A stretch of 64,000 nucleotides of DNA, taken from contig JABIHA010000122.1 in the NCBI GenBank assembly GCA_018649885.1, forward strand, positions 1-64,000, given 5' to 3'. Source of the stretch: Bacteriovoracaceae bacterium. Its GTDB lineage: Bacteria > Bdellovibrionota > Bacteriovoracia > Bacteriovoracales > Bacteriovoracaceae. The position numbers were made by a program, and so were the translations under genes. Below, piece by piece: positions 1,377-46,142 of this stretch; positions within the stretch are counted from its first letter, which is position 1; each line of letters starts with the position of its first letter. The notes beneath the pieces are model-generated. The model was not told the DNA's origin, did not search any database, and saw nothing but the letters and a program-made list of their open reading frames with translations.

Positions 1377-4300
1377 ATGAAAAACTGCAATGTATTGCTC
1401 CTCTTATTAATTTCAATGACATTTTTTGCATGTAACTCAGAAAAAGGCGGTGGTAGTACAACTAGCACTACAACAGTTGTTAAAGAAGTTCCAGTTGAAT
1501 CCACTCCCAAACCTATTGAGCCTGAAACTGTGGAAATGGTTTCCAATTTAAATATGTCTATGGCACCTATTGTAGAGAGTTACCATCGCCTTGAATTTGT
1601 TGAAGGATTTACCTTTTCGGCCATAGGCGATAGTTACGCCAATGGATCTTGGTATCATGAAGAGAATGAAGTCATTGGGACAAAGCATCTCTCAGATTTC
1701 AAACAAGGGCAGATACTTTATTTTGTAGAACAAAGTGTAGAGGGAGAAAAAGTTTCAGAGAATTATTTTATTTTCCCAGGTCTTTCAGATTTAACAGTAG
1801 AAAGTGTTCGCGTTGAGGAAGATGATATTGTCGTTGTTGTGAAAAATATAGGGGGTTCAGAATTTAATTATGATTCATTAATTGATACTTTCAAAGTGAA
1901 AACATTTGTAGATTTTTCTAAGAGACAATCTTATAGGAACGTGGATTATTCACCAGAAGAATATTTTTCTGAAACCTCAAATATCGCTATCCCAAAAGTT
2001 GGAGAGAGCGTAGAGGTGCGAATTTCAAAAATGCCATATATAGCCTTTATGAATTATTTTGGAACTTCAGATAGTGAATTTTTCGAAATCCCACTTTATA
2101 TTAATATAGATCCAGAAGGGGTCATTCGTGAATACAATCGATTTAATAATAAAAATATTTTCCCACTTCGATTTTTTAATGGCCAGGAAAGAGCAGATGT
2201 GGCCATTGAGTCAGTTGAGCTGATGGGAAGTGAAATAAAACTGAAAATGAAAAATGATGGGTTTCGTTCAGTTTCAATAGAAAAAATGATTGTCTATCCA
2301 AAGTACAATAGAGATCTAAATATTGAGTTGAAAAGCTATCCCTATATTCAAATGAATCAATTCTCAGAACTCATTTTTCGTGCCGATTTATTTCCTCTAA
2401 GTGAAGGAGAGGATCAGAGCTGGGTTTTTGAAGCTATTATTAGTGGTGATGAGGATCTTGATTTATCTAATAATTCAATGGAGCTCAATTTTAATGCAAA
2501 TCAAGTTGAGGCCTTTGAAGATGATGTATCAGTTTCTAACTTTCACTACGATTCATCTTCAAGTGAGCTAAAGTTTACACTCGAAAATAAGGGAGTGAAT
2601 GATTTAGACCGTGTTCGTTTTGATATTGCTGATGAAGAGCCTGAATTGGATAGAGATAGATTCTATGAGCAAACAAACTTAGTTGCAGGAGAGCAAAGAG
2701 AAGTGAGTATCTCTTTTGATGAGATATTTTTTTCAGGCACAATTGGTGAGAAAGTATACAGTGTTGTATTGGATAAGAATGATTCTCTATGGGAAAGTAA
2801 CGAAGTTAATAATGTTGCGACCACCACTTTTACTTTAGATCCCTTTGACGTTGAAGTCGTAAGTTCTCTAGAGGAAGAGGGATTTTTTAATATTGCTTAT
2901 AAGTTGGGAGGATCTTTCAAATATTCACAAGTTGACTATACAACTTTTAGAATCCTGTCACGGGTTCAAGGAAATGGCTCATTTAGAAATCAAATAGACT
3001 TAACCCCTGATTCGTGGGAATTAGGGGTTGAATATACATCTTCTGTTTCAATATCAGAAATCATGGAAAAAGTCATGGACTACTATGATGGCCAAACGGT
3101 AGATGTCTTTGCCGAGTTTATTACCAACCTTAATGAAGTTAACACCGAAAATAATAAGGTTAAATTAATTGATACAATTGTAGTTCCAAGAAAGCTTCCC
3201 AATTTGACAATTTCAGAAATCAATACCTCTACTGAGGGCCTATCTTGGAAGGTTGTCAATATTGGGGATAAAGATTTTTATGAATACAGAAACTACTTAA
3301 GAATCAAGATTACTATTAATGGAGTTACGAAAACGGAGAGATTTTCCTACTATCTTGACGTGGGAGAAGACGAAGCTGAGGTGGGTTACTTTGATTTTAA
3401 TCAGTTTGGGTTAGAGCTTGGACAAAGATATGATATTGTTGCTGAACTGGTACTCGATAGTCCTATTGAAGAAAAATCTCTTGATGATAACCGCCTTGAA
3501 ACTTTTGTTCAAATGCCTGAGCCACCAAAACCCAACTTTGCCGTTGAGTCCATAATAAGAAATGAAACTCGGATAATTGTTTACATTGAAAATACTGAAA
3601 CCACAATTTGCCCTGGGTGTACAGAATACCCTGTGAAGATATTAAATGAAGCGGGCGATCTTGTTGCAGAAAAAACAATTGATTTATCAATGCAAAATAA
3701 GAATATGACGAGAAAAAGCGTCACTTTTAACTACGCTGATATCGATTTGGCAATTAAAACACCAAGCACTCTGACAGCAGTTTTGAATTCTGGGAATATC
3801 ATTTCAGAGGTAAGCTATGATGACAATAGTGGAGAATTTCCATTCACCAAATTGGGGTATTATGACCTTAAAGTTGAAAGTATTTCAAAAACACTAAATG
3901 GCTATAATGTATTGATAAAAAATATTGGGATCAGTACAACAAGCAACTATGATGTTGTACTGGAATACAATGGAGAGACGATTAGACCCGACTTTTCTCC
4001 TTCAAATAAAACTGTTTATACTGGTAGCATGAAAACATTTTCTTTTAGCTCTGTTGATATTAGGGAGTCGTGGATTCCTATTTTAGGAGAAAAGATTTCT
4101 GCTATTGTTAACTTCATAAGCGATGATGACAATAGTGATAATAAACTTGTTTCTGAATTTGAAATACCTTACTTTGACCTTGAGGTCACAGAAATAAACT
4201 CCATTGAAGGAGGGATATCAGTTTCTGTAAAAAACCATGGGCCTACCCTTTCTAGTTACCACAGTGGTAAATTAAAGGTTCAATTTAATGATAATGAAGA

Positions 4301-6935
4301 TTTTGACACAGGTGTCAGACAAAGTAGAGAGATTAATGTAGGTGATATTGCACAAGGAGAAACAAAACAATATCAAATTACAGGTTATCAATATAATTCT
4401 CTGATGGGTAATGCCCTCCAAACTTGGGATGCCTCAGGTCACCTTCATGCCAAAGTTGATTTTGAAAACGATTTAAATGAAGTGAACGAAAATAACAACT
4501 ATCTTCATACAAACTATAGTTTACCAAGTCCCAAAATTGATATTGAGGTTACACGGATGTACTGGCTTAGTTCATCTCAGCTGACAGTTGTTGGAAAAAA
4601 CAATGGAGACGCCTGTACAATAAATTGTCCTAAAGTGAAAGGCAAATTCTATGCCGTTGACGAGGATGGAAACGCAAATAATCCCGTTGAAGTTGAGTTT
4701 GCAATACCCAGCTCAACTGATAAGTCCATGGTCTCATTGGGGGCAAGTCAGCTCGGTCTTGAAATGAGAAAAGAGTATCAAATATTTTTTGAAGCAGACC
4801 ATAATGAGATTTTCCCAGAAGAAAATGAAGAAGATAATATTGGCTCAGTCACTTATACTCACCGCTGGGTTTATGATCTTGAAGTAACTGATTTTTCTTA
4901 TGATAGTGAAACAAAGAGATGGACAGTCAATGTTCTCAACCAAGGAAAAGATAGTGTTAAGTTTAGAAATGTTACTGTACGAGGAGCAGGGATTGGATCA
5001 AATGATATCTTTTTTAAAGATTTAAATTATACAAATTCAATTTATTCTGGTCAAAAGAGCTCCTTTACTATTGATAACAGGGATCTTAAATTTCATCCTG
5101 GTGAAGCACCAAACGAGATTTCAGTTGTCGTAAGAGCGGATTATGATAACGATTTAGTTAATAATACGCTGGTAAAAACAATTGATGCTCCCTTTATCGA
5201 TTTTGAGTTGGGGGAAGTGACAATTGATTCAGTAAATCAGAAAATTGATATCCAGTATTTTTCAAAGGGAGCAGGTCTTGCAAATGCGGCTACTGCTACT
5301 GGCAAAGTCTTTTTTCTTGAAAGTAATCCAATAGTAGTGAATTTAGATTTAGAAGAAGGGGAGCATCACCTTATCCTAGAAGATTACAGTTGGATTAGAT
5401 TGACTCCTTTTTTAACTGATAATGCAAATCAGTCCACGGCAACCTTAACAGTACTACTCGATGATCGTGACTATAATTTTGAATCAAATGAAGAAAACAA
5501 TTCAATAGAAAAATCACATCTTTTTTCAGCTGCAAAGGCTGATCTCACTATTTCAAGTTTTTCTCTTGATTATGATCGGATAGTAATTAATGTGAAAAAT
5601 GATGGACCAGCAAGAGTTGCACATGGATCAAATTTCACAATTAATTTACGTGCAGGAGAGATTGAGAAAAATCTCCTAGAGTGGACAACATTTTATAGAA
5701 ATGAAGAAAAGGAATACATCATCCCACTTTCAGAGTTTCCTCTACAAGATGGAGCTGAATATACAATAACGGTAACAGTAGATCATTCTCAAGTTGTTGA
5801 TGAAAGAAACGAAGATAATAATGCCTACTCCACAACACTTGTGATGTCAGATTTGCCAGAATCTGACCTTTCTATTAAATCTGTCGCTGTAAATGATTTT
5901 TACCTTGATATTGAAGTTCAAAACCTAGGGGAAAAAACAAATAGAGATTTGAATGATTTTAATATTTCAGTGCAAAGTGGAGATGACTTTTCTAAGATAT
6001 TTAGATTGGTGAAAGTACCTGCTGCTTTGGGGACTGAGCTCATCTCTATTCCTTTGTCTGAGCTAGAACCACTAAGGGGGCAGATGGCCAGCTTTAATGT
6101 GGCCCTTGATATTGAAAATACAATTGTCGAGGTAGATGAAGAAAATAACTCTGGAAATTTTGATATATTCATTCCCGAGCGTGGGTCCCCTGATTTTAGA
6201 GTAGTTGATATTTATAAAACACATAGTAATATAGATGGTCATCGAAGTGGCGAGATGTTTGTAGTTTTAATTGAAAATATGGGTACAGAATATGCAAGTC
6301 CTTCATCAGTATCAAATCTATCAATTGGTGAACTTACTCTTTCAAGAAATACTAATTCTTGGCAGGAAATTAAAAGAGGAAGAAGATATATATCAAGAAT
6401 TCCTTTAGAAACTATGGGTGTTTATGATGCGCTTAGTGTGCAGTTTCCAAATGAAGAAAACCCCAACCTCATTGTAAGTTTTGACTTTGATGTTGAACAA
6501 AACATAACAGAGTTCGACGAGGAAAATAACTCATTTGAAATAGAGCTACCCTTTTATCAAGATAGCGTGGAAATTAATTTCATAGACGATAGTGCCAATT
6601 TTGAAATGGTCTCAATTGTTCAACATGAAGATTTGGAAACCTATAAATTTTCTTTTAAATATACTGGAGATTTGCCAAGTCGCGCACTCTCTCCTCAACT
6701 TTATATTAAAGTGTTCTTTACTATGCCTTCAGGGGAAGTAATATCAGGTAGCTATAATTTCTTTCCCTCTCTGACTTTTCATCCTGGAGTTACTTACGAT
6801 TCCTTTCTTCGCTTTGATCATGTGAACCACGAAATTCCAGAAGGTTTTCAAAGTTTTAAAGTGGTTATTGATCATGATGGACTGATTGATGAGACAAATG
6901 AAATTGATAATGAAATGAACTACACAGTAGAATAA
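1377..6935 (+). CDS. Giant lipoprotein with ~15 tandem CARDB/Ig-like domains (putative adhesin)
   Basis: Lipobox LLISMTFFA-C; Thr/Pro linker; ~15 modules starting (P)DLxV/I, containing VKNxG and ending ExNExNN-like motifs. Confidence 0.85.
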   Translation: MKNCNVLLLLLISMTFFACNSEKGGGSTTSTTTVVKEVPVESTPKPIEPETVEMVSNLNMSMAPIVESYHRLEFVEGFTFSAIGDSYANGSWYHEENEVIGTKHLSDFKQGQILYFVEQSVEGEKVSENYFIFPGLSDLTVESVRVEEDDIVVVVKNIGGSEFNYDSLIDTFKVKTFVDFSKRQSYRNVDYSPEEYFSETSNIAIPKVGESVEVRISKMPYIAFMNYFGTSDSEFFEIPLYINIDPEGVIREYNRFNNKNIFPLRFFNGQERADVAIESVELMGSEIKLKMKNDGFRSVSIEKMIVYPKYNRDLNIELKSYPYIQMNQFSELIFRADLFPLSEGEDQSWVFEAIISGDEDLDLSNNSMELNFNANQVEAFEDDVSVSNFHYDSSSSELKFTLENKGVNDLDRVRFDIADEEPELDRDRFYEQTNLVAGEQREVSISFDEIFFSGTIGEKVYSVVLDKNDSLWESNEVNNVATTTFTLDPFDVEVVSSLEEEGFFNIAYKLGGSFKYSQVDYTTFRILSRVQGNGSFRNQIDLTPDSWELGVEYTSSVSISEIMEKVMDYYDGQTVDVFAEFITNLNEVNTENNKVKLIDTIVVPRKLPNLTISEINTSTEGLSWKVVNIGDKDFYEYRNYLRIKITINGVTKTERFSYYLDVGEDEAEVGYFDFNQFGLELGQRYDIVAELVLDSPIEEKSLDDNRLETFVQMPEPPKPNFAVESIIRNETRIIVYIENTETTICPGCTEYPVKILNEAGDLVAEKTIDLSMQNKNMTRKSVTFNYADIDLAIKTPSTLTAVLNSGNIISEVSYDDNSGEFPFTKLGYYDLKVESISKTLNGYNVLIKNIGISTTSNYDVVLEYNGETIRPDFSPSNKTVYTGSMKTFSFSSVDIRESWIPILGEKISAIVNFISDDDNSDNKLVSEFEIPYFDLEVTEINSIEGGISVSVKNHGPTLSSYHSGKLKVQFNDNEDFDTGVRQSREINVGDIAQGETKQYQITGYQYNSLMGNALQTWDASGHLHAKVDFENDLNEVNENNNYLHTNYSLPSPKIDIEVTRMYWLSSSQLTVVGKNNGDACTINCPKVKGKFYAVDEDGNANNPVEVEFAIPSSTDKSMVSLGASQLGLEMRKEYQIFFEADHNEIFPEENEEDNIGSVTYTHRWVYDLEVTDFSYDSETKRWTVNVLNQGKDSVKFRNVTVRGAGIGSNDIFFKDLNYTNSIYSGQKSSFTIDNRDLKFHPGEAPNEISVVVRADYDNDLVNNTLVKTIDAPFIDFELGEVTIDSVNQKIDIQYFSKGAGLANAATATGKVFFLESNPIVVNLDLEEGEHHLILEDYSWIRLTPFLTDNANQSTATLTVLLDDRDYNFESNEENNSIEKSHLFSAAKADLTISSFSLDYDRIVINVKNDGPARVAHGSNFTINLRAGEIEKNLLEWTTFYRNEEKEYIIPLSEFPLQDGAEYTITVTVDHSQVVDERNEDNNAYSTTLVMSDLPESDLSIKSVAVNDFYLDIEVQNLGEKTNRDLNDFNISVQSGDDFSKIFRLVKVPAALGTELISIPLSELEPLRGQMASFNVALDIENTIVEVDEENNSGNFDIFIPERGSPDFRVVDIYKTHSNIDGHRSGEMFVVLIENMGTEYASPSSVSNLSIGELTLSRNTNSWQEIKRGRRYISRIPLETMGVYDALSVQFPNEENPNLIVSFDFDVEQNITEFDEENNSFEIELPFYQDSVEINFIDDSANFEMVSIVQHEDLETYKFSFKYTGDLPSRALSPQLYIKVFFTMPSGEVISGSYNFFPSLTFHPGVTYDSFLRFDHVNHEIPEGFQSFKVVIDHDGLIDETNEIDNEMNYTVE

Positions 6936-10790: not shown

Positions 10791-10961
10791 AATCCATATT
10801 CAGAATCTATATATAAAACTTATTTTACAACGTATTTTATTGTGAGAAGCCAGGGCAAATTTTTACCTTGAAACAATAACTTAGGATGTCAAAACTAATT
10901 TAGGTTACAATGGTAAAAAAGGATTTACGGGCGCTATACTTGAGTTTCAAGAGAGGTTATC

Positions 10962-12815
10962 TTGCTTAGAAAGATCAAAGTTTCCATCAATACCAAGCTA
11001 CTTACACTCGTTACGAGTTTTGTTTTGGGATCGCTATCTGCTTATCTTTATTTTGCGCTGGACCTCTTTCAAAAAGATAAAACTGCTTACATTTTTGATT
11101 CTACTCTTTCAACAACTTCAGCTCTATCAAAACAAATCACTGAGTCAATTAGTAATATCATCAATAGTTCACAACTTATTGGTGGCATTTATCAAACAGA
11201 AGACTTAGGAAAAGATCTTTATGAAGGAGTTTTTCAATCTAATAAATCTATCTTTGAATTCTTAGTATTTCGAGAGGACGAAGGTCAGTTTAAAGAACAC
11301 CTTAATTTAAAAAAAGCAGATATTCTAAAACAGTACCGTCTTAAAGATGATTATTTCAAACAGATTATTGATAAAAACCCTGTCAATTTTTCAGAGATAA
11401 AAGCAAGGAAATACCTCCTAAAAAACACTTCTAGCATTGGTGGAGTTCCACATTTAACTCTTGGTGTATATAACCAAAAGGCCAATGAAATTTATGTCAC
11501 CAGAATTATCCTTGATTCGTTCATTAAGACCTTTAATGAGAATAAGGTTTACAATAATTACCTTCTCAACGACAAAGGCCAAACATACGTCCACAGAGAC
11601 TCAAAAAAGGTGATGGCCCATGAAAATATGTCTACAGAAAATTATATTCAAGATGTCCTTTCTGCTGAAGTCTCAAATGGAGTTAGAGAGGTAACCAATA
11701 GTAAAGGCGAAGTTGTTTTACTAGCTTTTACAAAGCTCAAACATCTTGGCCTGGTAGTTCTTTCTGAAATTTCAAAAGACAAGGCCTTTGCATCTATTAA
11801 AGAACTTATTTTCAAGTCAGTTGTACTGGCGGTATTTTTGATGTCGACTGCATTTATTGTGGGATTTTTCATGTCTAGATCTTTCACAAGGCCAATTACA
11901 ATGCTTGTTGAAGGGACCCAAAAAATTGCACAAGGAAACTTTGACACTGTTGTCTCGGTCAATGCAAGTGACGAAATAGGGGTTCTTTCTGACTCTTTCA
12001 ACTTTATGGCAAAAGAAATTTTAAGATATATGGATGAAGTAAAGGAAAAGGCGAGAATGGAAAATGAACTCGCTGTTGCCCAACTCGTGCAAGGCTCATT
12101 TTTTCCTGACAGTGATATCAAATTACCAAACTTAGATATTTCCGGTTACTATACCCCTGCTTCAGAATGTGGTGGTGACTGGTACGGATATCTTACAATT
12201 GGAGATAAAACACTCGTATTTATCGGAGATGCCACAGGCCATGGTGTGCCAGCTGCACTGATTACAGCAACAGCAAACGCGGCCATCACCCTGATTGAAG
12301 AAATGGTCAAAGTAGATCCTTTACTTGCCACTTCTCCTGCCAGAATTCTAACTCTTCTTAACAAAGCAGTTTACGCAGTTGGTGGAAAAATTTTGATGAC
12401 CTTTTTTGTGGCAGTAATTGACAACAACACAAGAGAACTTGTTTATAGTAATGCTTCTCACAACCCTCCCTATGTTTACAGAAAAGCTGATCACGAACCC
12501 ACAAAAAATGATGTGGAAGTCCTACTTGAAAAACCGGGCCCAAGACTTGGTCACAAGGAAAATCCTGAATATATAGAAGGAAAAGTCCCCTTATATCAAG
12601 GAGATGTCCTGATCATGGCCACTGATGGCATCCTTGAAGGTGAGAATCCTGAAGGAAAACAGTGGGGTGAAAGGCGTTTTATTAAGTCATTTTTGACTGC
12701 TGTCACTCAATCTTCTAGCGATATTGTCGAAACGCTACTAAAGGATGGCCGTGAATTTTTCCAAGGGGTTGAAGTCGATGATGACGTTACCCTGGTTATT
12801 ACTAAATTAACTTAG
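10962..12815 (+). CDS. Membrane sensor SpoIIE/RsbU-type PP2C phosphatase (Cache-like, HAMP, PP2C)
   Basis: Two TM helices; HAMP DEIGVLSDSFNFM; PP2C motifs CGGDWY, GDATGHG, NASH, TDG, DDVT. Confidence 0.92.
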   Translation: MLRKIKVSINTKLLTLVTSFVLGSLSAYLYFALDLFQKDKTAYIFDSTLSTTSALSKQITESISNIINSSQLIGGIYQTEDLGKDLYEGVFQSNKSIFEFLVFREDEGQFKEHLNLKKADILKQYRLKDDYFKQIIDKNPVNFSEIKARKYLLKNTSSIGGVPHLTLGVYNQKANEIYVTRIILDSFIKTFNENKVYNNYLLNDKGQTYVHRDSKKVMAHENMSTENYIQDVLSAEVSNGVREVTNSKGEVVLLAFTKLKHLGLVVLSEISKDKAFASIKELIFKSVVLAVFLMSTAFIVGFFMSRSFTRPITMLVEGTQKIAQGNFDTVVSVNASDEIGVLSDSFNFMAKEILRYMDEVKEKARMENELAVAQLVQGSFFPDSDIKLPNLDISGYYTPASECGGDWYGYLTIGDKTLVFIGDATGHGVPAALITATANAAITLIEEMVKVDPLLATSPARILTLLNKAVYAVGGKILMTFFVAVIDNNTRELVYSNASHNPPYVYRKADHEPTKNDVEVLLEKPGPRLGHKENPEYIEGKVPLYQGDVLIMATDGILEGENPEGKQWGERRFIKSFLTAVTQSSSDIVETLLKDGREFFQGVEVDDDVTLVITKLT

Positions 12816-32284: not shown

Positions 32285-33232
32285 TTAATAAAGCATGACA
32301 AAGTCGCCTTCACTCACCGTCCCGCCTGAATGGACCACCGCGGTAGCCCCATCTGGGCCAAAGTAATCAATAACCTCAAGGGTTCCTTTGACTTCACCCT
32401 TGGAAAGGCCAATGAGAGCGCCGGTTTCTGGATCGTAAATCTCTTCACCTTCGGTTAGGACCTTTAGAATGTCGCCAACATGTATGCCTGAGGCCCTGCC
32501 AGCGTTGATATAGATTTTAGTCCCAATAATTTTAGCAACTCTTCCCATCCAATCCATTTTTGTGGCCAAGGCCAAAATTGGTGGAAGAATTCTTCTTGTT
32601 GCCACCTTTACAGCATATCGAAGCATCTCTTGACGATACTCCATCTGAGATTCAGAGTCGGACTTGAAGAAGCGGAATGTTTTGTCATTGGCGTAACCTA
32701 GAAACGTTCTGCTAAAAACTTCTTTTTGATTTTGGATGTCATATATTTTTAGCTCAACTTTGGCCTCAGCATAGGCCCTCGTTTCACGAATAAGGCCGAT
32801 ATCGTCTGTCTTTTCCCTTACTCTTGCATCAACAATGCGACCATAGAGAACAAAGTTTATGCCAGTAAGTTTAGCTCTTCTCGCCATTTGAGTGAGCTTA
32901 GCACCCCCTCCAGCATAGATCTCTTTACTAGAGCCAAAAATTCTTTGCCCTTCTGAATCAATAATAAACTCACCAGTTCTTCCGATTTCAACTCTCAACT
33001 CTTCAGTAACGTTGACACCTAAATCTGGTCCACCATAGGGGCTTTCATTGAATACCCGTAAAAGTGCTACCTTCTTTTTGATGAGAGCAAACTTGTCATT
33101 AGCTCTGCCACCTTTATAGCCTGAGCCAACTCCTGAGCCTCTTTGAACTGGCTCACTGCCACATCCAAAAACAAAAGTAGTTATAGTGAAAAAAATGAGA
33201 AGCTTCGCAAGTCTTGGCACCCAAACTCCCAA
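32285..33232 (-). CDS. Lipoprotein, CsgG/FlgT-like
   Basis: Lipobox FVFG-C; C-terminal IYINAGRASGIHVGD..EEIYDPETGALIG. Confidence 0.7.
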   Translation of the reverse strand: MGVWVPRLAKLLIFFTITTFVFGCGSEPVQRGSGVGSGYKGGRANDKFALIKKKVALLRVFNESPYGGPDLGVNVTEELRVEIGRTGEFIIDSEGQRIFGSSKEIYAGGGAKLTQMARRAKLTGINFVLYGRIVDARVREKTDDIGLIRETRAYAEAKVELKIYDIQNQKEVFSRTFLGYANDKTFRFFKSDSESQMEYRQEMLRYAVKVATRRILPPILALATKMDWMGRVAKIIGTKIYINAGRASGIHVGDILKVLTEGEEIYDPETGALIGLSKGEVKGTLEVIDYFGPDGATAVVHSGGTVSEGDFVMLY

Positions 33233-33242
33233 AAATAATAGT

Positions 33243-34610
33243 TTACTGCTCTGTTGTTTCTTCAGAGCGTGTTGCTATTATTTTATAGGGTTCTGACTCA
33301 TTTGGAACAAAGTAGCTAAATTTGCCCTTATAAGTCTTACCTTTTAGCCTACTTAGCAGAGACTTGAGATTAGAATCATCGCCTATAAAGTTGACTTCAA
33401 TGATCACCTTATCAACGGCGATTGATTTAACAGATGTTTTTAATCGGTATCTACCACCCATATTACTTAGCAAATTCATCAGCCCATAGGCCTCGGCCAT
33501 GCTTTTATATTCATAAAGAGACAGTCTTCTTTTTTTCATGCCCGATGGAATGGCCATAAGAGATTTCTTTATTCGCTTTAGTGGAGCTAGAGGCATTCTA
33601 TAAACAAAGCTTGCAATTTGAGAGCTCAAGTCACTTCTTTCAAAGAACTTGTAGGTAATGACTCTTGGAGGGATCATAGTGGACAAGACAACCTCTGAAG
33701 TGGCAACGTCCAGTACAATCACTGATCCTGAAAATTCAAATGTCTTAGATTTTAAAACAATATTTTCTTCAATTTTTTTAATATCAAGGGCGAACTTTAA
33801 CCAAAGCCCATTTGTGACGGACATTTCAGCCAGCATTTCTCCTGAAGCAGAAGGTAGTATTTGTCCCGATCTCAAATCATGTTGCAGGCTCTTTATTATC
33901 TCAGTATCTGCTTTTACAACTTGGTCCACTACTCCAGTTAGTTTTGTAATGAGCCAATTATTCCAAGAATCTTCAAGTGTGGATATAAAATCACCTTGAT
34001 TTTTGACACCTAGATCATTCCACCCATCAACTCCCACATTAAAGTGAGTTGAAAAATAAATATTAGAATATTTACCTCCATGCTCTCCTCCCACATACTT
34101 AAAATAAATGCGGTTCAAGGCCTTTCTACTAACTTTGCCATTGAGTTTAATATAGCGAGTATTGGGGTATTCAGAAGACCTAGATATCTTAACGACTGAA
34201 TAGCTTGTAATCACCTTTGAGAGATTTCCGAACTTCTTAGACATCAGAATTCTCTTTTGTCTCATTTTGTTATTAAAGCTAAGTTTTTGCTTGGTTGTTT
34301 GTTTTGGGTCATCCACATGGTATTTTTCTTCCAGTCTTTCTTTTACTAAATTAAATGACTCTTCAAATTTTTCATTAAATTTATTCCAAAATAATTCTGA
34401 ATCCATACCCGCTAAAGTTAATTTTTTGGTAATAATATCTTTAAAAGCATTGTTAATAAGTCCCGATTTGATAAAACTAAGGGAATCATCACTTTGTGCA
34501 TAAAACTTTCCCTCACCTAAAATAAAGTCCCCTCTCTTCTTTTGAGCTTTTTGGGCCCAAACAGACGTGCAAAGACAAACTAAAATCAAATATTTTAAAG
34601 AAATTTTCAT
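33243..34610 (-). CDS. Secreted hypothetical protein
   Basis: Signal peptide; start overlaps the dnaE stop codon. Confidence 0.75.
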   Translation of the reverse strand: MKISLKYLILVCLCTSVWAQKAQKKRGDFILGEGKFYAQSDDSLSFIKSGLINNAFKDIITKKLTLAGMDSELFWNKFNEKFEESFNLVKERLEEKYHVDDPKQTTKQKLSFNNKMRQKRILMSKKFGNLSKVITSYSVVKISRSSEYPNTRYIKLNGKVSRKALNRIYFKYVGGEHGGKYSNIYFSTHFNVGVDGWNDLGVKNQGDFISTLEDSWNNWLITKLTGVVDQVVKADTEIIKSLQHDLRSGQILPSASGEMLAEMSVTNGLWLKFALDIKKIEENIVLKSKTFEFSGSVIVLDVATSEVVLSTMIPPRVITYKFFERSDLSSQIASFVYRMPLAPLKRIKKSLMAIPSGMKKRRLSLYEYKSMAEAYGLMNLLSNMGGRYRLKTSVKSIAVDKVIIEVNFIGDDSNLKSLLSRLKGKTYKGKFSYFVPNESEPYKIIATRSEETTEQ

Positions 34611-38212: not shown

Positions 38213-38430
38213 TTTCTGGTCCTCGCGATCCGCCATTCTAACCTAATCGCTTTCCCAAGTTAAGGCTAAGTGCTCACAACTTATGCCTTTAGCCGTAATT
38301 AAGTAGCTAGCTCATGCCGCATCACCTCTTCGCAAATCTCAATATATTGAAACAAATTGCGAGCACTTGAAGAGCGCTCAGAAGTAAAAATTACAATATG
38401 CAAAAAAAATATTTCATGAATTGCATTTTG

Positions 38431-38472
38431 CTGATGTAGGTCAAACTTTTTTGCAGCTTGATGCATTACAAT
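38431..38472 (+). promoter_or_regulatory. Class II FNR/CRP-family-like promoter
   Basis: CTGAT-gtag-GTCAA (8/10 match to TTGAT-N4-ATCAA) centred at 38437.5, TACAAT at 38467-38472; box at about -41.5 if the TSS is ~38479. Confidence 0.5.
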
Positions 38473-38481
38473 ATCGCACAT

Positions 38482-40698
38482 ATGAAAGATGAATACGGCC
38501 CATGCAGTGAGAAAAAATTTAAGTTAGATCGCAGGAAATTTGTTCAACTTTCGGCCCTTGGCACGGGGTCCCTATTTTTTAACTCAAATGCTGATGGACT
38601 TGAATCAGCATTTCAAACTCTCCCCTCAGATACGGAAACGATCTCAACTTGCAATCAATGCTATTTGGGTTGTGGAATTATCGCCACTTTAAGAGCAGGA
38701 AAAGTTGTTCAGCTCAGAGGGAATCCTAGCTCGCCGACTAATCGTGGAAAAATTTGTCCCAAGGCGCACGCAGGAGTTTTCAAACTTTATCATCCCGAGA
38801 GAGTCCTTACTCCCATGAAAAGAGTTGGAAAAAGGGGTGAAGGAAAGTTTGTCGCCGTTAGCTGGGAGCACGCGCTAGATTTGATCTCAACTAATTTGAA
38901 AAAAAGTATTGAAGCCTATGGTGGAAAAAGTTTGGCCCTCATGCACAACATAGATAATGCCAGGCCTGATATATACAAAAGGTTTCTCTACTCCCTGGGC
39001 TCTCCTAATTTTTTTGATCACCCGGGATCTGCCGGATTCCATATCGGTGGAGGAATTGCTGCCGGAAAAATAACTTTTACACCTCACTATCAAAAAGCTG
39101 AAAATATTCTAATTGTTGGGGCCAACCCACTCGCCTGTAAAGAATTGTGCTGGTCGGCCAGGGAACTGATGAAGGCAAAGCATAGAGGGGCGACCATTAT
39201 TACCGTTGATCCAAGAATGACGGAAACGGCAATGCACTCGAGCAGGGGAATGTGGGTTCCCATAAAACCGGGTACTGATGGAATATTTCTAGCGGGACTT
39301 TGTAGACACCTTATTGAAACAAATAAGTACGATCATAAATTTGTTGAGCTTCATACTTTTGGTTTTAAAAAATTTAGAGAGCATGTCGCTATTTATACGC
39401 TGGACCAAGTTTGCCAAAAAACGGATATACCCAAAGAGCAATTTTTGAGTGTGGCAAAGGCGATAGCAAAGGGAAAAACGGCCATTGATGGTTTTTCCGG
39501 AATTTCTTTTCAAGCAGATGCAAGCTACACCGGACATATGAAAACGGCCCTTTCAGCACTACTTGGATGTATTGATAGTGAAGGAGGAGTTCTCCCACTT
39601 CCTATTCCAAGAATTGAATTTAAAGATGTGGCGCCTAGTGTTTCTATGCCAATGACTGAGAGAATTGATCGTGGAAATTTTGGAAAATTACCACTTCCAT
39701 TTTTACCACCAGAGAAAAATTTGAGCTTTATTGGAATTGGCCAAAACCTTCCAAAGCATATTTTAAGTGAAAAACCTTACCCCCTAAAATCGCTTATCAT
39801 TAGTTATACAAATCCCGTTTATTCATACCCCGATACCGTTGGTTTTAAAAAGGCCTTAGAAAAATTGGACCTAGTGGTTACAATTGATGCCTTTGTTTCA
39901 GATACAAGTATGTACGCTGATATTATTCTTCCAGGGGCCACCTATCTTGAAGAATATGATTTCAATGACCATTTTCCGCCTTTTCGTGGTGTTGTCATGA
40001 GAAAGCCAGTTGTAAGGCCAAGAGGTCAATCACTTGGAGGCCAAGATATTATAATTAAGCTGGCAAAAAAAATGGGACTTGGAAAACAATTCCCGTTTAA
40101 AGATTATCGCGATTTCTTAGAAAAACAGACCAAAGATTCACCCATTGATTTTAAAAAATTAGAGAAATTTGGCTTTGTGGATACCCAGTACCGTGTAGGC
40201 GAGACACTGGAAAAGGGATTTACAACACCCTCTGGAAGAATTGAGCTCTATAGTAGTGTTTTAGCTTTTTCAAAAACACCACCACTAAAAGTTTTTGATG
40301 CATGGGAAGAGACAAAAGATCCAGCTTATCCATTTTATCTAATATCCTATCGCTTGCCCTATCACGCCAATAATAAGACTGCTAGTAATGCTTATCTTGA
40401 TGCAATTAGTGGTGAAAATCAATTATGGATCAATACCCAAACAGCTAAGAAAATGAATTTACAAACAGGTATGATAGTCAAAATCACCTCAGAAACGGGA
40501 TCCCTAGAAGTCCCCATTTTTGTAACACAAGGAATTCACCCTCAGACCATGGCCTTAAGTCATCATTTTGGTCACAAGGCCTATTCAAAAATTTGCAGAG
40601 GAAAAGGAGCCAGGTTTAATGATGTGGGCTCAGATAAATTCGACCCCATTGGTTTCGGAATGAGTTTTAACACCCGAATCAAAGTGGAAAAAATATGA
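38482..40698 (+). CDS. Tat-exported Mo/W-bisPGD oxidoreductase catalytic subunit (PsrA/PhsA/ArrA-like architecture)
   Basis: DRRKFVQ Tat motif; CNQCYLGC..CPK FS0 cluster; VDPRMTETA, PGTD, ADIILPGATYLE, TPSGRIEL. Confidence 0.92.
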   Translation: MKDEYGPCSEKKFKLDRRKFVQLSALGTGSLFFNSNADGLESAFQTLPSDTETISTCNQCYLGCGIIATLRAGKVVQLRGNPSSPTNRGKICPKAHAGVFKLYHPERVLTPMKRVGKRGEGKFVAVSWEHALDLISTNLKKSIEAYGGKSLALMHNIDNARPDIYKRFLYSLGSPNFFDHPGSAGFHIGGGIAAGKITFTPHYQKAENILIVGANPLACKELCWSARELMKAKHRGATIITVDPRMTETAMHSSRGMWVPIKPGTDGIFLAGLCRHLIETNKYDHKFVELHTFGFKKFREHVAIYTLDQVCQKTDIPKEQFLSVAKAIAKGKTAIDGFSGISFQADASYTGHMKTALSALLGCIDSEGGVLPLPIPRIEFKDVAPSVSMPMTERIDRGNFGKLPLPFLPPEKNLSFIGIGQNLPKHILSEKPYPLKSLIISYTNPVYSYPDTVGFKKALEKLDLVVTIDAFVSDTSMYADIILPGATYLEEYDFNDHFPPFRGVVMRKPVVRPRGQSLGGQDIIIKLAKKMGLGKQFPFKDYRDFLEKQTKDSPIDFKKLEKFGFVDTQYRVGETLEKGFTTPSGRIELYSSVLAFSKTPPLKVFDAWEETKDPAYPFYLISYRLPYHANNKTASNAYLDAISGENQLWINTQTAKKMNLQTGMIVKITSETGSLEVPIFVTQGIHPQTMALSHHFGHKAYSKICRGKGARFNDVGSDKFDPIGFGMSFNTRIKVEKI

Positions 40699-41684
40699 CC
40701 TCTCAGCTCTCTTTTTACAAGCATGATCAGATCAGCTTCTTCAAGTGCTCGCTTATTTGTATTGCCTTAGAGTTGGCAGCACAATACCTCAGACTTCCAA
40801 TATACCCAGGTTGGGTCCCCCTCATTTTTTGGGCAAAAGGAAAAATTGAATTTAAGAGTTTTGAGTCATCAATACTTATTTATACTTTTGGGGTAGCAGC
40901 ACTTACATTTTACTTTCAGGGAATAAATTCATTAGACTACACGCTTAGTTTTACCAGTTTTTCATTAATTTTATTTTTCTCCAAAATTAGAAGACTCGGA
41001 ACAGTATATTCTCTTTTAATACTGACTACCATTTGGTGTTTATTCTCAATTCTTCTTTCTAGTTTCCCTACCGGCTCCATCGGTCTTGAAGTCTTTTTCA
41101 CTGCCGTTTTCACTAGGGTTTTAAAAAGTGAATATATAGGTGCAGTGCTATCGAGACTCTTTTTGATAGCATTAACTTACGCACTAATAAAAATAGCCAG
41201 CGTGATAAAGAGAAAGCTAAGTGGTGGCAAGAAAACGCAGGCCCTTGTACTGGGAGCCGTATTATTAATGTGTAGCTGCCAAAAACAATCAAGCTCCATT
41301 GTAAATAGATTTTCGCCAGCTAGGGACACCAATTCGGAGCAAGTCATTTCTTTTTTTAATGATGAACAAGAAGAAAAAGAAGAACATATCGTTATTGATG
41401 AAGATATTAGAAATAGAGAAACTTGTGTGGGATGCCACGCTGAAAAAGTCAAAAAATCTAAACTACCTAAGAATAAGAAAAACTTTCATGAAATACACTT
41501 TGCCTATGAAAAGATCGATAAAGATTGCACCTTTTGCCATGAAAGTGCAGGTCTTATTGGATTTCCTGCTCTTCTAGGAAAAGGGGATAGGCGTACTCAG
41601 TACAATCAAAAGTGTATTAGTTGTCATAGTAAAAAAATTAGTGGTGGTAAAAAAAGACTTAGCTGGCAAAAGAGGTATTGGTGA
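40695..41684 (+). CDS. Polytopic membrane domain fused to a triheme c-type cytochrome
   Basis: Several hydrophobic helices, then CVGCH, CTFCH, CISCH; overlaps both neighbours. Confidence 0.8.
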   Translation: MTSQLSFYKHDQISFFKCSLICIALELAAQYLRLPIYPGWVPLIFWAKGKIEFKSFESSILIYTFGVAALTFYFQGINSLDYTLSFTSFSLILFFSKIRRLGTVYSLLILTTIWCLFSILLSSFPTGSIGLEVFFTAVFTRVLKSEYIGAVLSRLFLIALTYALIKIASVIKRKLSGGKKTQALVLGAVLLMCSCQKQSSSIVNRFSPARDTNSEQVISFFNDEQEEKEEHIVIDEDIRNRETCVGCHAEKVKKSKLPKNKKNFHEIHFAYEKIDKDCTFCHESAGLIGFPALLGKGDRRTQYNQKCISCHSKKISGGKKRLSWQKRYW

Positions 41685-42235
41685 AAGAGCAAGTTGGCTT
41701 TCTTATTGATGTAAATAAATGTGTGGGATGCCATTCGTGTCGTGTGGCCTGTCAATTTTATAATGACACTGGGCCTGCGGTAAATTTCAGACAAGTGACA
41801 ACCCACCAAAAGGGCCAATTTCCAGACGTAATCCAACATACATTATCGCTTGCCTGCAATCACTGCCATGAACCAGCTTGCATTAAGGTATGTCCCGTAG
41901 AGGCCATTACCAAAAGAAAAAAAGATGGCATTGTTTTTATCGATCCAAAATCTTGTATTGGATGCTTTAGATGTGTTCCCGCTTGTCCATTTGGCGCCCC
42001 AAGAAAAGACTTAGAAAAAAAGATAGCGACAAAGTGTCATTTTTGTATGGACCGACAAGATAGAGGTCTTGAACCGGCCTGTGTTTCAACTTGCTTGGGA
42101 GGGGCCCTCCAGTTCGGTACTTATAAAGAAAGAAAGAATATGGCAGCCGGTAGAGAGCTTGTTCGCCAAATTGAGGGCTTTTCTGATCCCCAGCTAACGA
42201 ACCCTTCTACACGCTTTATCAAACCTTCAAACTAA
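41678..42235 (+). CDS. 4x[4Fe-4S] electron-transfer subunit (DmsB/PsrB-like)
   Basis: CVGCHSCRVAC, CNHCHEPAC..CP, CIGCFRCVPACP, KCHFC..PACVSTC. Confidence 0.93.
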   Translation: MVKEQVGFLIDVNKCVGCHSCRVACQFYNDTGPAVNFRQVTTHQKGQFPDVIQHTLSLACNHCHEPACIKVCPVEAITKRKKDGIVFIDPKSCIGCFRCVPACPFGAPRKDLEKKIATKCHFCMDRQDRGLEPACVSTCLGGALQFGTYKERKNMAAGRELVRQIEGFSDPQLTNPSTRFIKPSN

Positions 42236-43947
42236 AGCTCAAGCTTCGGAACCGAGAGAACTCCAGAACGAGAACTTCCCCAACACTTGATACTCTTGCC
42301 ATCAATACCGCAGGCAAAGTAGCCACCAAGTGAGAATCCTCTAAAATCGGTAAATGCAGGAAAGCTGTGAGTTTTATACCCAGTGTAGCCCCAGCATTTA
42401 AACTTCTTACCATCCTGAGCACAACTATAAATGCTTCCTGTCCCTATATTGACAGGATTAGATAAGCTTGGAGGTGTGGTCTTTTTGTAAGAAGTGTCTC
42501 CCCAACAAGTAACTCCCGCTGAATGAAGTGCACAGGCATGAGAGTAGCCTGCCTGGATTTTTTTCACTCCTTTCATAATGGGAACATTGAGCTGCTTGTA
42601 ATAGTTATTTCCCCAACACTTCACATTCTCCTGGTCAAGAGCACAAGTAAAATTTCCGCCAGCAGTAACTTCTTTCACGGGAAGTTTTAGTTTGGGCTGA
42701 GAGCTTACTTGTTTATTGTAGTCGTAGCCCCAACATTTTAATTGTCCATTTTTTTGAATGGCACATGTGTGATAGGAATTAGAAGTTCCAAGCTTAATTG
42801 GCTCGACTAGAGTTGGAACATTGAGCTGCCTATAAGAATTATTTCCCCAGCACTTGACACCTTTTTTATCAAGAGCACATGTATGAGATTGCCCTGCTGC
42901 AAGTTGAACGGGGGCCTCTAGCACGGGCATCGAGCTTTGCATTGCCCGTCCCCAACACTTCACGCCTTTTTTTGTAATGGCACAAGCGTGCTCTATTCCA
43001 GTGGCAAGAATATTTTCAGGCGGAACCTTGATCCTGTCGACTTTGACTTTCATAGAAGGAGATATAGTGGCAAATCTAATTTGTGAGCTCAAATCGAGTT
43101 CTTTATGAGCATTTAACCCATGGCAATTGAGACCATCCGAGTCTGAGAAAGCACACATGTGAAAATCAGAGGCCCTAAGCATTGTTGGATCTTTGTAGTC
43201 AAACAGACCAGGCAAAACCTTTGTCTCTCCCCAACACTTCATACTGGTCTCTCCCCAAAATGAGAGCAGATCAATAGCACAAGTAAAATCCTTTCCACTT
43301 TGGATAGTTAGAGGATGTTTGAGCACGGGAGCAATAGTTCTACTCCCGGCCCTTGTTCCAAAGCAAAAGGCGACTCTTTCATCTTTTGCGGTCTCATCGA
43401 TTACACAAGTAAAATCCTTTCCCGTTGAAACCATCACTGGATTAATAAGGGATTTTGGCACATCACTCTTGTCGTAAGTATTATCACCCCAGCATTTCAG
43501 CTGTCTTTTGCCAGCACTTACTTGATCAATGACACAAGCGTGATTTTGACCAATATCAATTTGTATAGGCTTAATAGTTCCCGGAGGAGTTAAAAGTGAT
43601 AGTGGGCCTTTGCCTTTACAAAAAAGGTCTGGTCCTTCACTCCAACAAACCACATCTCTTCCAGACTTAAGAACACCTAGACGGTAAATACTCTTGTTCA
43701 AATTGACAGAGCCCATACATTGAAGCTTTCTGGAATTAGCAGCGCATAGATGCTTTCTTCCCAGAGATAACTTTGTTGGATTAGAGATGCTAGGAATCGA
43801 AATTGCCCTTCCCATACAAGATATTTTATTTGTTCCTGAGACCTCTACAATGGCGCAGGTTCTGTTAACCGCCAGCTCCATTTGCATCAGAGTTTCTGAA
43901 AAAAGTTGAGTAGAAAATAATAGGGACAACAAAGCAAAAACTTGCAC
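42232..43947 (-). CDS. Secreted RCC1/BLIP-II repeat protein (paralog 2)
   Basis: Same repeat pattern as 22109-23839; GTG start after GGAGG; signal peptide. Confidence 0.88.
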   Translation of the reverse strand: MQVFALLSLLFSTQLFSETLMQMELAVNRTCAIVEVSGTNKISCMGRAISIPSISNPTKLSLGRKHLCAANSRKLQCMGSVNLNKSIYRLGVLKSGRDVVCWSEGPDLFCKGKGPLSLLTPPGTIKPIQIDIGQNHACVIDQVSAGKRQLKCWGDNTYDKSDVPKSLINPVMVSTGKDFTCVIDETAKDERVAFCFGTRAGSRTIAPVLKHPLTIQSGKDFTCAIDLLSFWGETSMKCWGETKVLPGLFDYKDPTMLRASDFHMCAFSDSDGLNCHGLNAHKELDLSSQIRFATISPSMKVKVDRIKVPPENILATGIEHACAITKKGVKCWGRAMQSSMPVLEAPVQLAAGQSHTCALDKKGVKCWGNNSYRQLNVPTLVEPIKLGTSNSYHTCAIQKNGQLKCWGYDYNKQVSSQPKLKLPVKEVTAGGNFTCALDQENVKCWGNNYYKQLNVPIMKGVKKIQAGYSHACALHSAGVTCWGDTSYKKTTPPSLSNPVNIGTGSIYSCAQDGKKFKCWGYTGYKTHSFPAFTDFRGFSLGGYFACGIDGKSIKCWGSSRSGVLSVPKLEL

Positions 43948-44047
43948 GAGATTCCTCCAATCCATAAGGAAATATTTGATTTCAGAAAATTGTAATTCAA
44001 AAATAGGCTGCACTCAAATGACATCCTATGACATCTTGGCTGCGAAG

Positions 44048-44126: not shown

Positions 44127-46142
44127 ATGGCCAAACAATTTTTATGGATTTTCCCAGTGTCACTTTTACTCCTATGTGCCTCATGTGGTGGCGATAGTGA
44201 TAAAAATGAATATGAGGAATCGGGTCAATACTCCCAAGGAAGTGCAACCTTAAGCACTTTATTTGATGTTGCTGGAGCTCGCGCCGTCTTAAGTGTGGGA
44301 GGCAGCAGTGCTGGCAGCGACGATATAATAAAAATCTATTCAAGCGGAGGCCACCGCTCAATTTTTCGAAATATTCATCATAGATGGGACCTGCGAATTG
44401 CTGCCCTTGAGGTTGGTCCCGACGGCTCTCTATATATAGGACTCAATTGGGGCGTTTGGATTGTCGATGATTTATCGCCCAACCGTTCAGGAGAAATTCC
44501 TGACTTTTCCGCTTCGCCTGCAGGTCAAAGCGTTGCCCTTTTTAGAATAAGGCCAAATGGGCAAACGGAAGTAGTTGACCCTGACATTTCTGGTATTCGA
44601 AAAGACAATGGCAGCGAGATGACAAATTATTCACCCATCCAGTTTGATCGGCTAGGTAATGTTTATTATCTTGGACAGTCTGGCGGAACAAATGTTCTAA
44701 AAATGAAAACTCCATCAGGAGGAATTCAGCAAATCGGCAATGCCAGAATGAATATTCGAGATTACCGCGTTTCAAAAGAAGGTAGAGTTGTCTTCCATGG
44801 CAATAATGAAGATGATTGGAATTCTGAATGGCTCAGGATTTATAACCCGGACTCAAGTGTAACAAATGTATATTATAGAAATGGTTCTGGATGGTTAAGA
44901 TCCTATTACATAGATCACAGTGGCAATATCATCTTAGTAGGAGAAGCTCTCACTATGGGAAGTGAGCTCACTGGAGCTAGAAAGTACAACGGTATAATAA
45001 AGGCCAGTGTTGATGGAGTAGGAAAAGTTTATGCAATAGATGTGCTCTATAGTGATTACTCCGCAAATATTAATCCAGATAATTTAATTGAAAATTTGCT
45101 GTGGGGTTTTTGGAATAATAACCATCAACTCAATTTTTTCAAAAAAAATACTTATGGAGGTATTTTAGATCCTCTTCAGCTTGATGATGACATGACAAAT
45201 CGTGGCATCTCAGAATTTATTAAATCAATTTACTATAATAGTGACTCCCTACTTCCTGGATTAGATGAAGTTGATTTCTCGCTCCTAGCATCAAGTCGTT
45301 TGCCTAGGGCCATAAAAAAAGAATGGTTTAGTGAACTACTAAATTCACTTGATGATAAATCTGACATACATTTTCTTCTGGAGAACTACTCGCTTGAGCT
45401 AGACTACTATAGGTATTCCCACGATTACGGGTCGAGTACTGATATTGGGCGTAGGGTAGCATCAATTTTTAGAAAGCTTGAATTCCTTGGTTTGATTTCA
45501 CTTGATCCTGATAGTCCTAGTGAGGATATCCACAATATTGAAACAATAAGTTCTATTAGTGAAGTACTCAGAGAGTTGGTATTTTCATTGGTACCTGAAG
45601 ATGCTGTTTCGCTCTATGAATGGAGAAAAGACAATGGCCTGAACGGAGTCCGTTTTTCATGGGCCAAACAATTAATCTCATCAGAGAATGGATCAATGTA
45701 TGCAGTGATGGGTATGGACCAGTGGGGCGCTGGAGAAGGACAAGGCGATCGACTATATCAAATTCTTGGTGCTAGTGGTGTACTTGAACTTAAGGCCTTT
45801 ACCAGTGGGCCTGATTATTCCACTATAAAAGCAGCTAAGTTTGCAGATAAAAGGATGATTTATATTTCCACAATCTTGGGAACCAGTAAAATTCTTTCAC
45901 AAGACTTAGATGATCACGAAAGCCTACCTTTAAACTTAACAAATGGAAGAGGTGATATTGAAATTTTTGATTTTGCCTTTAGAAAAGATCAGGTTTCTCA
46001 AAAATTGATCTATGATGTATATGATTTAAGTAATAACACCTCTTACTTTGTAGAACAAAACTATGTCACTCGTGAAATTTACCAGCAAAATGCATTACAA
46101 AATATTAGCGTGTCAGGAGTATTAAGCTTTGAAGCAAATTAG
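44127..46142 (+). CDS. Lipoprotein, probable beta-propeller with helical insertion
   Basis: Lipobox LLCAS-C; blade-like VGPDGSLYIG, FDRLGNVYY, IDHSGNII. Confidence 0.75.
   Translation: MAKQFLWIFPVSLLLLCASCGGDSDKNEYEESGQYSQGSATLSTLFDVAGARAVLSVGGSSAGSDDIIKIYSSGGHRSIFRNIHHRWDLRIAALEVGPDGSLYIGLNWGVWIVDDLSPNRSGEIPDFSASPAGQSVALFRIRPNGQTEVVDPDISGIRKDNGSEMTNYSPIQFDRLGNVYYLGQSGGTNVLKMKTPSGGIQQIGNARMNIRDYRVSKEGRVVFHGNNEDDWNSEWLRIYNPDSSVTNVYYRNGSGWLRSYYIDHSGNIILVGEALTMGSELTGARKYNGIIKASVDGVGKVYAIDVLYSDYSANINPDNLIENLLWGFWNNNHQLNFFKKNTYGGILDPLQLDDDMTNRGISEFIKSIYYNSDSLLPGLDEVDFSLLASSRLPRAIKKEWFSELLNSLDDKSDIHFLLENYSLELDYYRYSHDYGSSTDIGRRVASIFRKLEFLGLISLDPDSPSEDIHNIETISSISEVLRELVFSLVPEDAVSLYEWRKDNGLNGVRFSWAKQLISSENGSMYAVMGMDQWGAGEGQGDRLYQILGASGVLELKAFTSGPDYSTIKAAKFADKRMIYISTILGTSKILSQDLDDHESLPLNLTNGRGDIEIFDFAFRKDQVSQKLIYDVYDLSNNTSYFVEQNYVTREIYQQNALQNISVSGVLSFEAN

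Follow-up and report, generated by a model that had tools for sequence, protein, structure and literature searches.

We analyzed a window of 64,000 nucleotides from a Bacteriovoracaceae bacterium (GenBank assembly GCA_018649885.1, contig JABIHA010000122.1, positions 1 to 64,000 of the forward strand), in which three genes on the plus strand form an operon with overlapping ends. The first gene (38458..40698) encodes P0001, a subunit of the MopB, or dimethyl sulfoxide (DMSO) reductase, superfamily, the Mo/W-bisPGD type, which carries molybdenum or tungsten on bis-pyranopterin guanine dinucleotide; it is followed by genes for a membrane-anchored triheme cytochrome c and for a ferredoxin. The canonical molybdenum-ligating cysteine is absent from P0001 and from a small branch of related proteins. 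An earlier reading made from the letters of the window alone (hereafter, the sequence-only reading) had drawn attention to this absence.

P0001 is 746 amino acids long from a TTG start and was identified by Pfam, by its match to PsrA (structure 2vpw) and by an AlphaFold2 model. Its domain order and four-domain fold are those of the Mo/W-bisPGD superfamily: PF04879, PF00384 and PF01568 match with 46, 121 and 63 bits, all above their cut-offs and in superfamily order, and the model (ma3ba7e1efd06; predicted local distance difference test score, 92.3; predicted template modeling score, 0.90) matches 2vpw, 6cz7 and 2e7z with template modeling (TM) scores of 0.81-0.84 in Foldseek. PsrA was the top fold match (E 1.4e-50, TM 0.81), with ArrA second, and T. 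thermophilus PsrA 2vpw was also the best solved relative by sequence (HMMER, E 2.7e-75). Two start codons are candidates: the TTG at 38458 opens the longest open reading frame (ORF), and the database gene call (P0004, 738 amino acids) begins at Met9, an ATG at 38482, from which 15 residues precede the twin arginines. These belong to a twin-arginine (Tat) motif, D-R-R-K-F-V, at residues 24-29 (38527..38544, plus strand), which was read from the translation and aligns with the PsrA signal; the related protein P0005 shares its RRKF, and P0007 reads RRRM. The motif of the [4Fe-4S] cluster FS0 follows, C65-x2-C68-x3-C72-x27-C100 and then K102 and A103 (38650..38757, plus strand), as seen in the translation and in alignments.

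The former ligand loop, GSPNFFDHPGSAGFHIGGG, spans 38998..39054 on the plus strand. The sequence-only reading had recognized this loop correctly but began it one codon late, as the Gly codon starts 3 bases earlier, at 38998. The translation of the ORF contains LGSPNFFDHPGSAGFHIGGGIAAG, and P0001 reads LGSPNFFDHPGSAGFHIGGG around Ala192, whose GCC codon occupies 39031..39033 (plus strand). Translation and alignments thus confirmed the reported alanine, and both the alignments and the AlphaFold2 model place it at or beside the position of the ligating cysteine. When P0001 was aligned with PsrA 2vpw by HMMER, a 3-residue gap lay directly over “LCT”, whose C is residue 173 in chain numbering; we take this residue to be Cys173, the molybdenum ligand of PsrA, and the Arg at chain position 332 to be its Arg332. 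Against acetylene hydratase, Ala192 stood opposite the Cys of “YMCIGN”, and in MAFFT alignments the Cys column held a 2-residue gap or Ala192, according to the sequence set. In the model, helix 192-202 starts at Ala192, after strand 184-187. The H-x-S-x-C ligand motif of PsrA and PhsA is therefore missing: its Cys column holds the gap or Ala192, and its Ser column holds Gly190. No Cys occurs between C100 and C227, and 38458..40698 holds no in-frame TGA because the frame is open, so the reported lack of a nearby Cys or TGA also held.

Contigs of other runs show the same letters. Contigs from run X2 (38774-39700) and run X4 (38400-39329) span the whole motif without a differing letter, a contig from run X3 covers it from 39025, again with 0 differences, and the three runs belong to three studies. 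Four runs, from four studies, have contigs in which the operon sequences are the same, and a metagenome contig is 100% identical over 746 residues. The sequence-only reading had named an assembly error, or close homologs that all carry Cys, as what would overturn it; the runs match, and three homologs show the same loss. It is thus exceedingly improbable that an artefact of assembly or sequencing, or a private mutation, explains the missing Cys. A metagenome scan with P0001 returned 2 loci only, both 100% identical over the matched stretch, and no new relatives.

The second gene of the operon (40695..41684, plus strand) encodes 329 amino acids: first a hydrophobic N-terminal part containing FPTGSIGLE, then the lipobox-like LLMC, and after it a triheme cytochrome c domain with CXXCH motifs at residues 244, 278 and 307. 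A separate lipoprotein form, with a lipoprotein-type signal, could arise from an in-frame GTG at 41202; the fusion of the membrane part to the cytochrome was confirmed in contigs of 4 runs. The membrane part had no Pfam match at E <= 1, and its best atlas match, 0.79, was under the lead level. The third gene (41678..42235, plus strand) encodes a four-cluster ferredoxin subunit of the DmsB/PsrB type, 185 amino acids with 16 Cys, which has no signal peptide of its own and is presumably exported together with the MopB subunit. No NrfD-like gene, of the NrfD/PsrC or PhsC type, is present in the operon, which runs from the A gene through the fusion to the B gene. Base composition over the operon showed no anomaly, and a promoter and terminator scan gave counts not above those of shuffled sequences.

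The sequence-only reading had suggested an uncharacterized clade of the DMSO reductase family, and the family models support this. P0001 scores 344.2 bits against the NCBIfam PhsA model NF012032 (cut-off 694), 199.8 against the QrcB model NF041783 (cut-off 440) and 24.8 against the AioA model TIGR02693 (cut-off 359), and it is also under the cut-offs for ArrA and TtrA. We searched a collection of 5.8 billion clusters and scored the 8,000 candidates that shared most words with P0001. Among them, only P0005, P0006 and P0007 reached 51-56% identity; P0008-P0019 followed at 38-46% and P0020 at 33%, and ordinary Psr/Phs-like proteins came next at ~30%. A second search, with P0007 as query, added 16 members of the 38-50% group, no further close relative and no new member without the Cys, and in a representative library P0007 was the only protein besides P0001 above about 36% identity. 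The branch without Cys thus comprises four sequences in the searched collections, two of them with flanking DNA. Among 60 relatives of the genome, 36 of them of the same family, none yielded an ortholog at E <= 1e-100, and the distribution is therefore patchy. Judged by these sequence comparisons, P0001 belongs to a Psr/Phs-like MopB clade that is rare and uncharacterized, and we found no paper on it in a literature search that was not exhaustive. Labels such as “thiosulfate/polysulfide reductase chain A”, borne by relatives, are probably wrong for P0001.

To place the loss, we built a tree of 43 rows selected from the 269 proteins then in hand, with those under 640 amino acids dropped (IQ-TREE quick search, LG+G4, midpoint drawing). 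The 16 clade members then available formed one group (Shimodaira-Hasegawa-like approximate likelihood ratio test (SH-aLRT) 100, stem 0.7), in which the four Cys-less sequences took one side of a branch (SH-aLRT 100, stem 0.21) and the other 12 the opposite side (94). At the ligand column the four carry a gap, A, S or I, and all 28 sister sequences carry C within H/Q-x-S-x-C. The sequence-only reading would have regarded another Cys or an Asp aligned to the ligand site as fatal to its claim; no such residue aligns there, and at or beside the column the four have no conserved candidate ligand. Its estimate of a loop about 2 residues shorter was borne out in 4/4 against the 28 sisters. Since the outgroups mostly carry Cys, loss of the Cys in the four-member branch, and not gain by the others, would be the simplest direction, although the tree itself is unrooted.

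The operon is shared across this divide. In L009, a locus of a Candidatus Parabeggiatoa metagenome-assembled genome that encodes the Cys-less P0005 (56% identity), the same genes occur in the same order, with the membrane part (2749-3315) and the cytochrome (3843-4340) as separate genes. The sister loci L010-L014 have the membrane part and the ferredoxin, and in L011, L012 and L013 a heme domain is fused as in the window (5004-5735, 3619-4365 and 10067-11008, respectively). The membrane part has a conserved FPxGSxGxE motif, and a lipobox-like motif marks its junction with the cytochrome (LLMC in the window, VVAGC in L011).

To describe how far the site has changed, we compared the four Cys-less proteins with the 28 sister sequences at 211 columns conserved in at least 90% of the latter. 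At 28 of these columns, at least three of the four proteins are altered. Some changes are fixed: G103A, S190G (the motif Ser), V231C, R347S, L514M, Q516K, T630S, K632R, T637A and G733F/Y. Position 103 directly follows K102 and is Gly in 28/28 sister sequences, and Ser347 (39496..39498, plus strand) replaces an Arg found in all 28 and aligns with Arg at PsrA residue 332, which we take to be an active-site residue. Other positions now vary among the four, namely the Cys column, R206 (T/A/A/Y), R374 (S/Q/Q/T), W505, G562 and G727, among others. Because three conserved Arg (206, 347 and 374) are gone, an anion-binding pocket appears to have been lost, and the roughly ten fixed new residues suggest continued constraint around the site. 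As a further candidate for a lost catalytic Arg, we considered Arg360, which is 91% conserved family-wide, and rejected it because F, R and Y all occur there in the sister clade; nor does any conserved residue of P0001's clade correspond to FdhH Arg333 in the alignment.

Much else was retained. The four FS0 cysteines and K102 are kept in 4/4 Cys-less sequences, and nine polar positions (K102, N223, D251, D274, D292, N452, D477, D488 and E498) are unchanged in 4/4 and in the 12/12 sister sequences checked. By contrast, nine homologs that score 510-570 bits against the QrcB model (cut-off 440) read L-G-E-E-x-N-S/T-D-E there, with 5-6 positions changed. The 200 Cys-bearing homologs yielded 75 columns with conservation of 80% or more; of these, 83-84% are retained in the four, 84-92% in the sisters and 72-81% in QrcB. 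As a marker of the cofactor, the nine positions are weak and only suggestive, because cofactor-less E. coli NuoG keeps most of them and the active E. coli enzymes FdhH, NapA and DmsA differ at 2, 2 and 1.

Rates of divergence gave a mixed picture. In the tree, the four have end branches of 0.08-0.50, which do not exceed those of the sister clade (0.18-0.57). Between the window and L009, MopB is 57.8% and the ferredoxin 68.0% identical, a ratio of differences of 1.32 for the single Cys-less pair with DNA. The same ratio is 0.77-1.02 in ten sister pairs, in which, for example, a ferredoxin identity of 67-71% goes with a MopB identity of 72-76%.

Loss of the Cys is not very unusual among Psr/Phs-like homologs. 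In an alignment of 261 homologs of at least 600 amino acids (from the 269, after P0002-P0004 and shorter proteins were dropped), 61 carry something other than C at the ligand column, and in 55 no Cys lies up to 6 residues away in either direction. This region of the superfamily has thus often lost the ligand, and few of the lineages concerned have been studied. Nine of the Cys-less homologs are QrcB, and of the other 48, 25 keep the K/R-NDDDNDDE pattern. These 48 Psr/Phs-type proteins, which include P0032, P0036, P0039, P0066 and P0073, apparently form a sizeable and unstudied set, many of whose members share a loop that ends ...N(K/R)..A..LTWG.

Characterized systems resemble that of P0001 in parts. 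Common to P0001 and PsrA/PhsA are a Tat signal and the FS0 and GSPN motifs, besides a four-cluster partner like PsrB, but P0001 has no Cys ligand and has Ser where PsrA has Arg at residue 332, and in its operon the place of NrfD/PsrC is taken by a small membrane part fused to a triheme cytochrome c, whose gene lies between those of A and B. QrcB is likewise a Psr/Phs-related large subunit that has lost the ligand Cys and kept the FS0 cysteines, and its complex includes a multiheme cytochrome c as well as a four-cluster ferredoxin. P0001, however, lies in a separate clade of the tree and under the QrcB cut-off, its operon has no NrfD-like QrcD, and the QrcB substitutions at K102, N223, D251, D274 and D477 are absent from it. 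In ArrAB with CymA, ArrA has a Cys ligand and CymA is a separate tetraheme protein of the NapC/NirT type, in contrast to the triheme domain of the window, which is fused to a multi-helix membrane part. AioA and IdrA exchange electrons with c-type cytochromes, as P0001 may, but they form a separate ancient clade whose FS0 is a [3Fe-4S] cluster with three Cys, against four Cys in P0001, and their partner is a Rieske protein, against the four-cluster ferredoxin here. ActB of alternative complex III is described as a cofactor-less MopB-like module that works with multiheme cytochromes c (PMC6303296, PMC10100899). It is fused to its ferredoxin and works with the NrfD-like ActC/F; the P0001 subunits are separate and their membrane part is unrelated, a distinction drawn from gene arrangement.

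We conclude firmly that an ancestral Cys-ligated site has been taken apart in P0001, that this change is old and shared by a small branch, and that the electron wire (cytochrome, ferredoxin, FS0 and Lys102) was kept. We read the ancestral site, from its residues, as probably oxyanion- or sulfur-reducing. In the mechanism we propose, P0001 would be exported through Tat and would serve as the large subunit in a three-protein periplasmic complex belonging to the Psr/Phs branch, with the membrane-anchored triheme cytochrome c and the four-cluster ferredoxin as the other subunits. The four-member branch has lost the ligating Cys by a 2-residue shortening of the ligand loop, and with it the motif Ser, the three sister-conserved Arg and other conserved residues that probably lined the pocket. 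P0001 would most likely still bind bis-PGD, because the FS0 cysteines, Lys102, the nine polar positions and the ferredoxin are kept; the metal would have no protein ligand, as in Aio/Idr, the substrate would be a different and probably uncharged one, and the cytochrome and the ferredoxin would carry electrons between metal and quinone pool.

We give this reading, in which P0001 bears the cofactor, holds the metal without a protein ligand and has changed its chemistry, a probability of roughly 0.4. We favor it because the cofactor-site markers are untouched and many residues are newly fixed. The Cys loss in 4/4 of one well-supported branch against Cys in 28/28 sisters, the end branches of ordinary length, and a ferredoxin that keeps 16 Cys at 68% identity to its L009 partner also speak for it, as do the MoaC, MoeA and MobA-like proteins that the genome encodes. 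A precedent exists in AioA and IdrA, which carry Mo-bisPGD with no amino-acid ligand and are, in the accounts cited, the only characterized MopB enzymes to do so (PMC10100899, PMC5432002), Aio being presented in 2017 as the only such enzyme known in the DMSO reductase family (PMC5432002). The sequence-only reading had offered the AioA parallel, which stands as a possibility for the metal site; P0001 is nevertheless no relative of AioA, as its 4-Cys FS0, its PsrB-like partner and its score against TIGR02693 indicate. Several points weigh on the other side. The positions nearest the metal chemistry (the Cys column, R206 and R374) are unconstrained among the four, no substrate can be named, and the ratio of 1.32 points, for its one pair, to relaxed constraint on the large subunit. 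At the marker positions, cofactor-less NuoG retains RDDD-NDHE in the alignment, and most characterized ligand-less MopB lineages are cofactor-less. It is also only tentatively that we regard this branch as a second, independent and evolutionarily young ligand-free Mo/W-bisPGD lineage within the Psr/Phs branch, formed by deletion in the Cys loop and loss of the Arg pocket and acting on a new, probably uncharged substrate.

The sequence-only reading had left out cofactor loss, the commonest known fate of a ligand-less MopB protein (QrcB, ActB, Nqo3), which yields a competing explanation that we consider plausible though short of probable. P0001 would then be a redox-inert scaffold and Tat carrier without Mo/W-bisPGD, retained since the signal-less ferredoxin needs it for export and assembly, and the complex would do no more than link the quinone pool to periplasmic partners, with electrons shuttled by the triheme cytochrome and the ferredoxin. 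The loss of ligand Cys, motif Ser and three Arg, with several of those positions now variable, fits such a role, as do the higher MopB/ferredoxin ratio, the replacement of the near-universal G733 by bulky F/Y and of G103 by A, and the missing signal peptide of the ferredoxin. Retention of FS0 is no argument against it, because the QrcB sequences in our set keep the four Cys too, and the available accounts describe QrcB as lacking Mo/W-pterin, ActB as a cofactor-less fusion, and Nqo3 and FhcB as lacking the cofactor (PMC6303296, PMC13059093, PMC10100899), one of them also mentioning cofactor-less relatives in aerobic respiratory chains (PMC10100899). The QrcB-type changes K102L, N223G, D251E, D274E and D477S are all absent, however, and the nine polar positions are intact in 4/4; the QrcB model gives only 200 bits, no NrfD-type subunit is present, the small membrane part has no known quinone site, and the tree shows no overall acceleration. 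An intermediate state, in which a non-catalytic site binds the cofactor, whether as a dead end or as a structural aid to folding and Tat quality control, or in which the gene is slowly decaying, would reconcile the kept markers with relaxed constraint at the former ligand and Arg positions and with the higher ratio, and it agrees with the patchy distribution. Yet the frames of all three genes are open, contigs of four runs from as many studies carry them unchanged, and the four proteins, now 51-56% identical, have kept FS0 and the operon over a time that would be long for a useless protein, so that we judge this state improbable. A change of ligand seems equally doubtful. The Ser ligation put forward by the sequence-only reading is unlikely, as Ser191, present in 3/4, is Ala in the Parabeggiatoa homolog P0005 and the motif Ser (190) is Gly in 4/4. 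Two new cysteines, in the loop and helix start after strand 216-220, are the other candidates: Cys231 is invariant in the four and Val in 28/28 sisters, and Cys227 is Cys in 3/4 and Ala in the sister clade. Against them, Cys227 is Thr in P0007, A-to-C and V-to-C are conservative changes at hydrophobic positions, and we know of no MopB enzyme that draws its ligand from that segment. Catalysis could, lastly, have moved to the FS0 cluster, as FS0 and Lys102 are fully conserved and a 2026 study describes Moco (molybdenum cofactor)-independent, FS0-dependent activity in Salmonella Xsr paralogues of DmsA (PMC13524816). We hold this to be highly unlikely, as Xsr proteins keep the Ser ligand and belong to the DmsA clade, a single distant family, and P0001 shows no sequence sign of a new FS0 environment.

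The operon is flanked by dnaE and by an RCC1-repeat gene, both on the minus strand; the latter (42232..44013, 593 amino acids) is convergent with the operon. Elsewhere in the window, 1377..6935 encodes an 1852-residue protein with a CARDB domain, and neighboring ORFs, including 32285..34610 and 44127..46142, had no Pfam match. Three further MopB genes occur in the genome (5.45 Mb, 92% complete), on contigs C56 (22375-23643, L001), C66 (2459-4597, L002) and C84 (2918-4192, L004), with open frames of 899, 1205 and 758 amino acids; a canonical H-T-S-I-C loop is encoded by the gene on C84, which precedes a 182-residue ORF. A cluster of MoeA, MoaC and MobA-like genes lies at about 16670-20341 of contig C146 in the genome (G000; L005-L007), the MobA-like gene scoring 94 bits, under its 152-bit cut-off; because this cluster is present, the organism is presumably able to make bis-molybdopterin guanine dinucleotide. 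At least 8 runs with the label marine metagenome, drawn from several studies, contain sequence nearly identical to positions 38400-42300 of the window (word share 0.61-0.99), and the organism thus recurs in marine samples. No RNA run was among the 20 runs listed for the locus.

The amino-acid ligand is the main handle by which DMSO reductase-family enzymes are classified and their chemistry predicted. A large phylogeny dropped sequences without the expected ligand (PMC10100899), and lineages like that of P0001 can go unseen in such a survey because sequences without the “correct” ligand are removed. In the present case, loss and rebuilding of an active site can be read position by position, because a close Cys-bearing sister clade shares the unusual operon. 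If the cofactor is absent, P0001 would add one more independent case of a molybdoenzyme turned into an electron-transfer scaffold, here with a membrane subunit of a new type. If the cofactor is still held, this would be the first ligand-free Mo/W-bisPGD site outside Aio/Idr, and the pair of sister clades would offer a natural before-and-after comparison of how a MopB active site is rebuilt.

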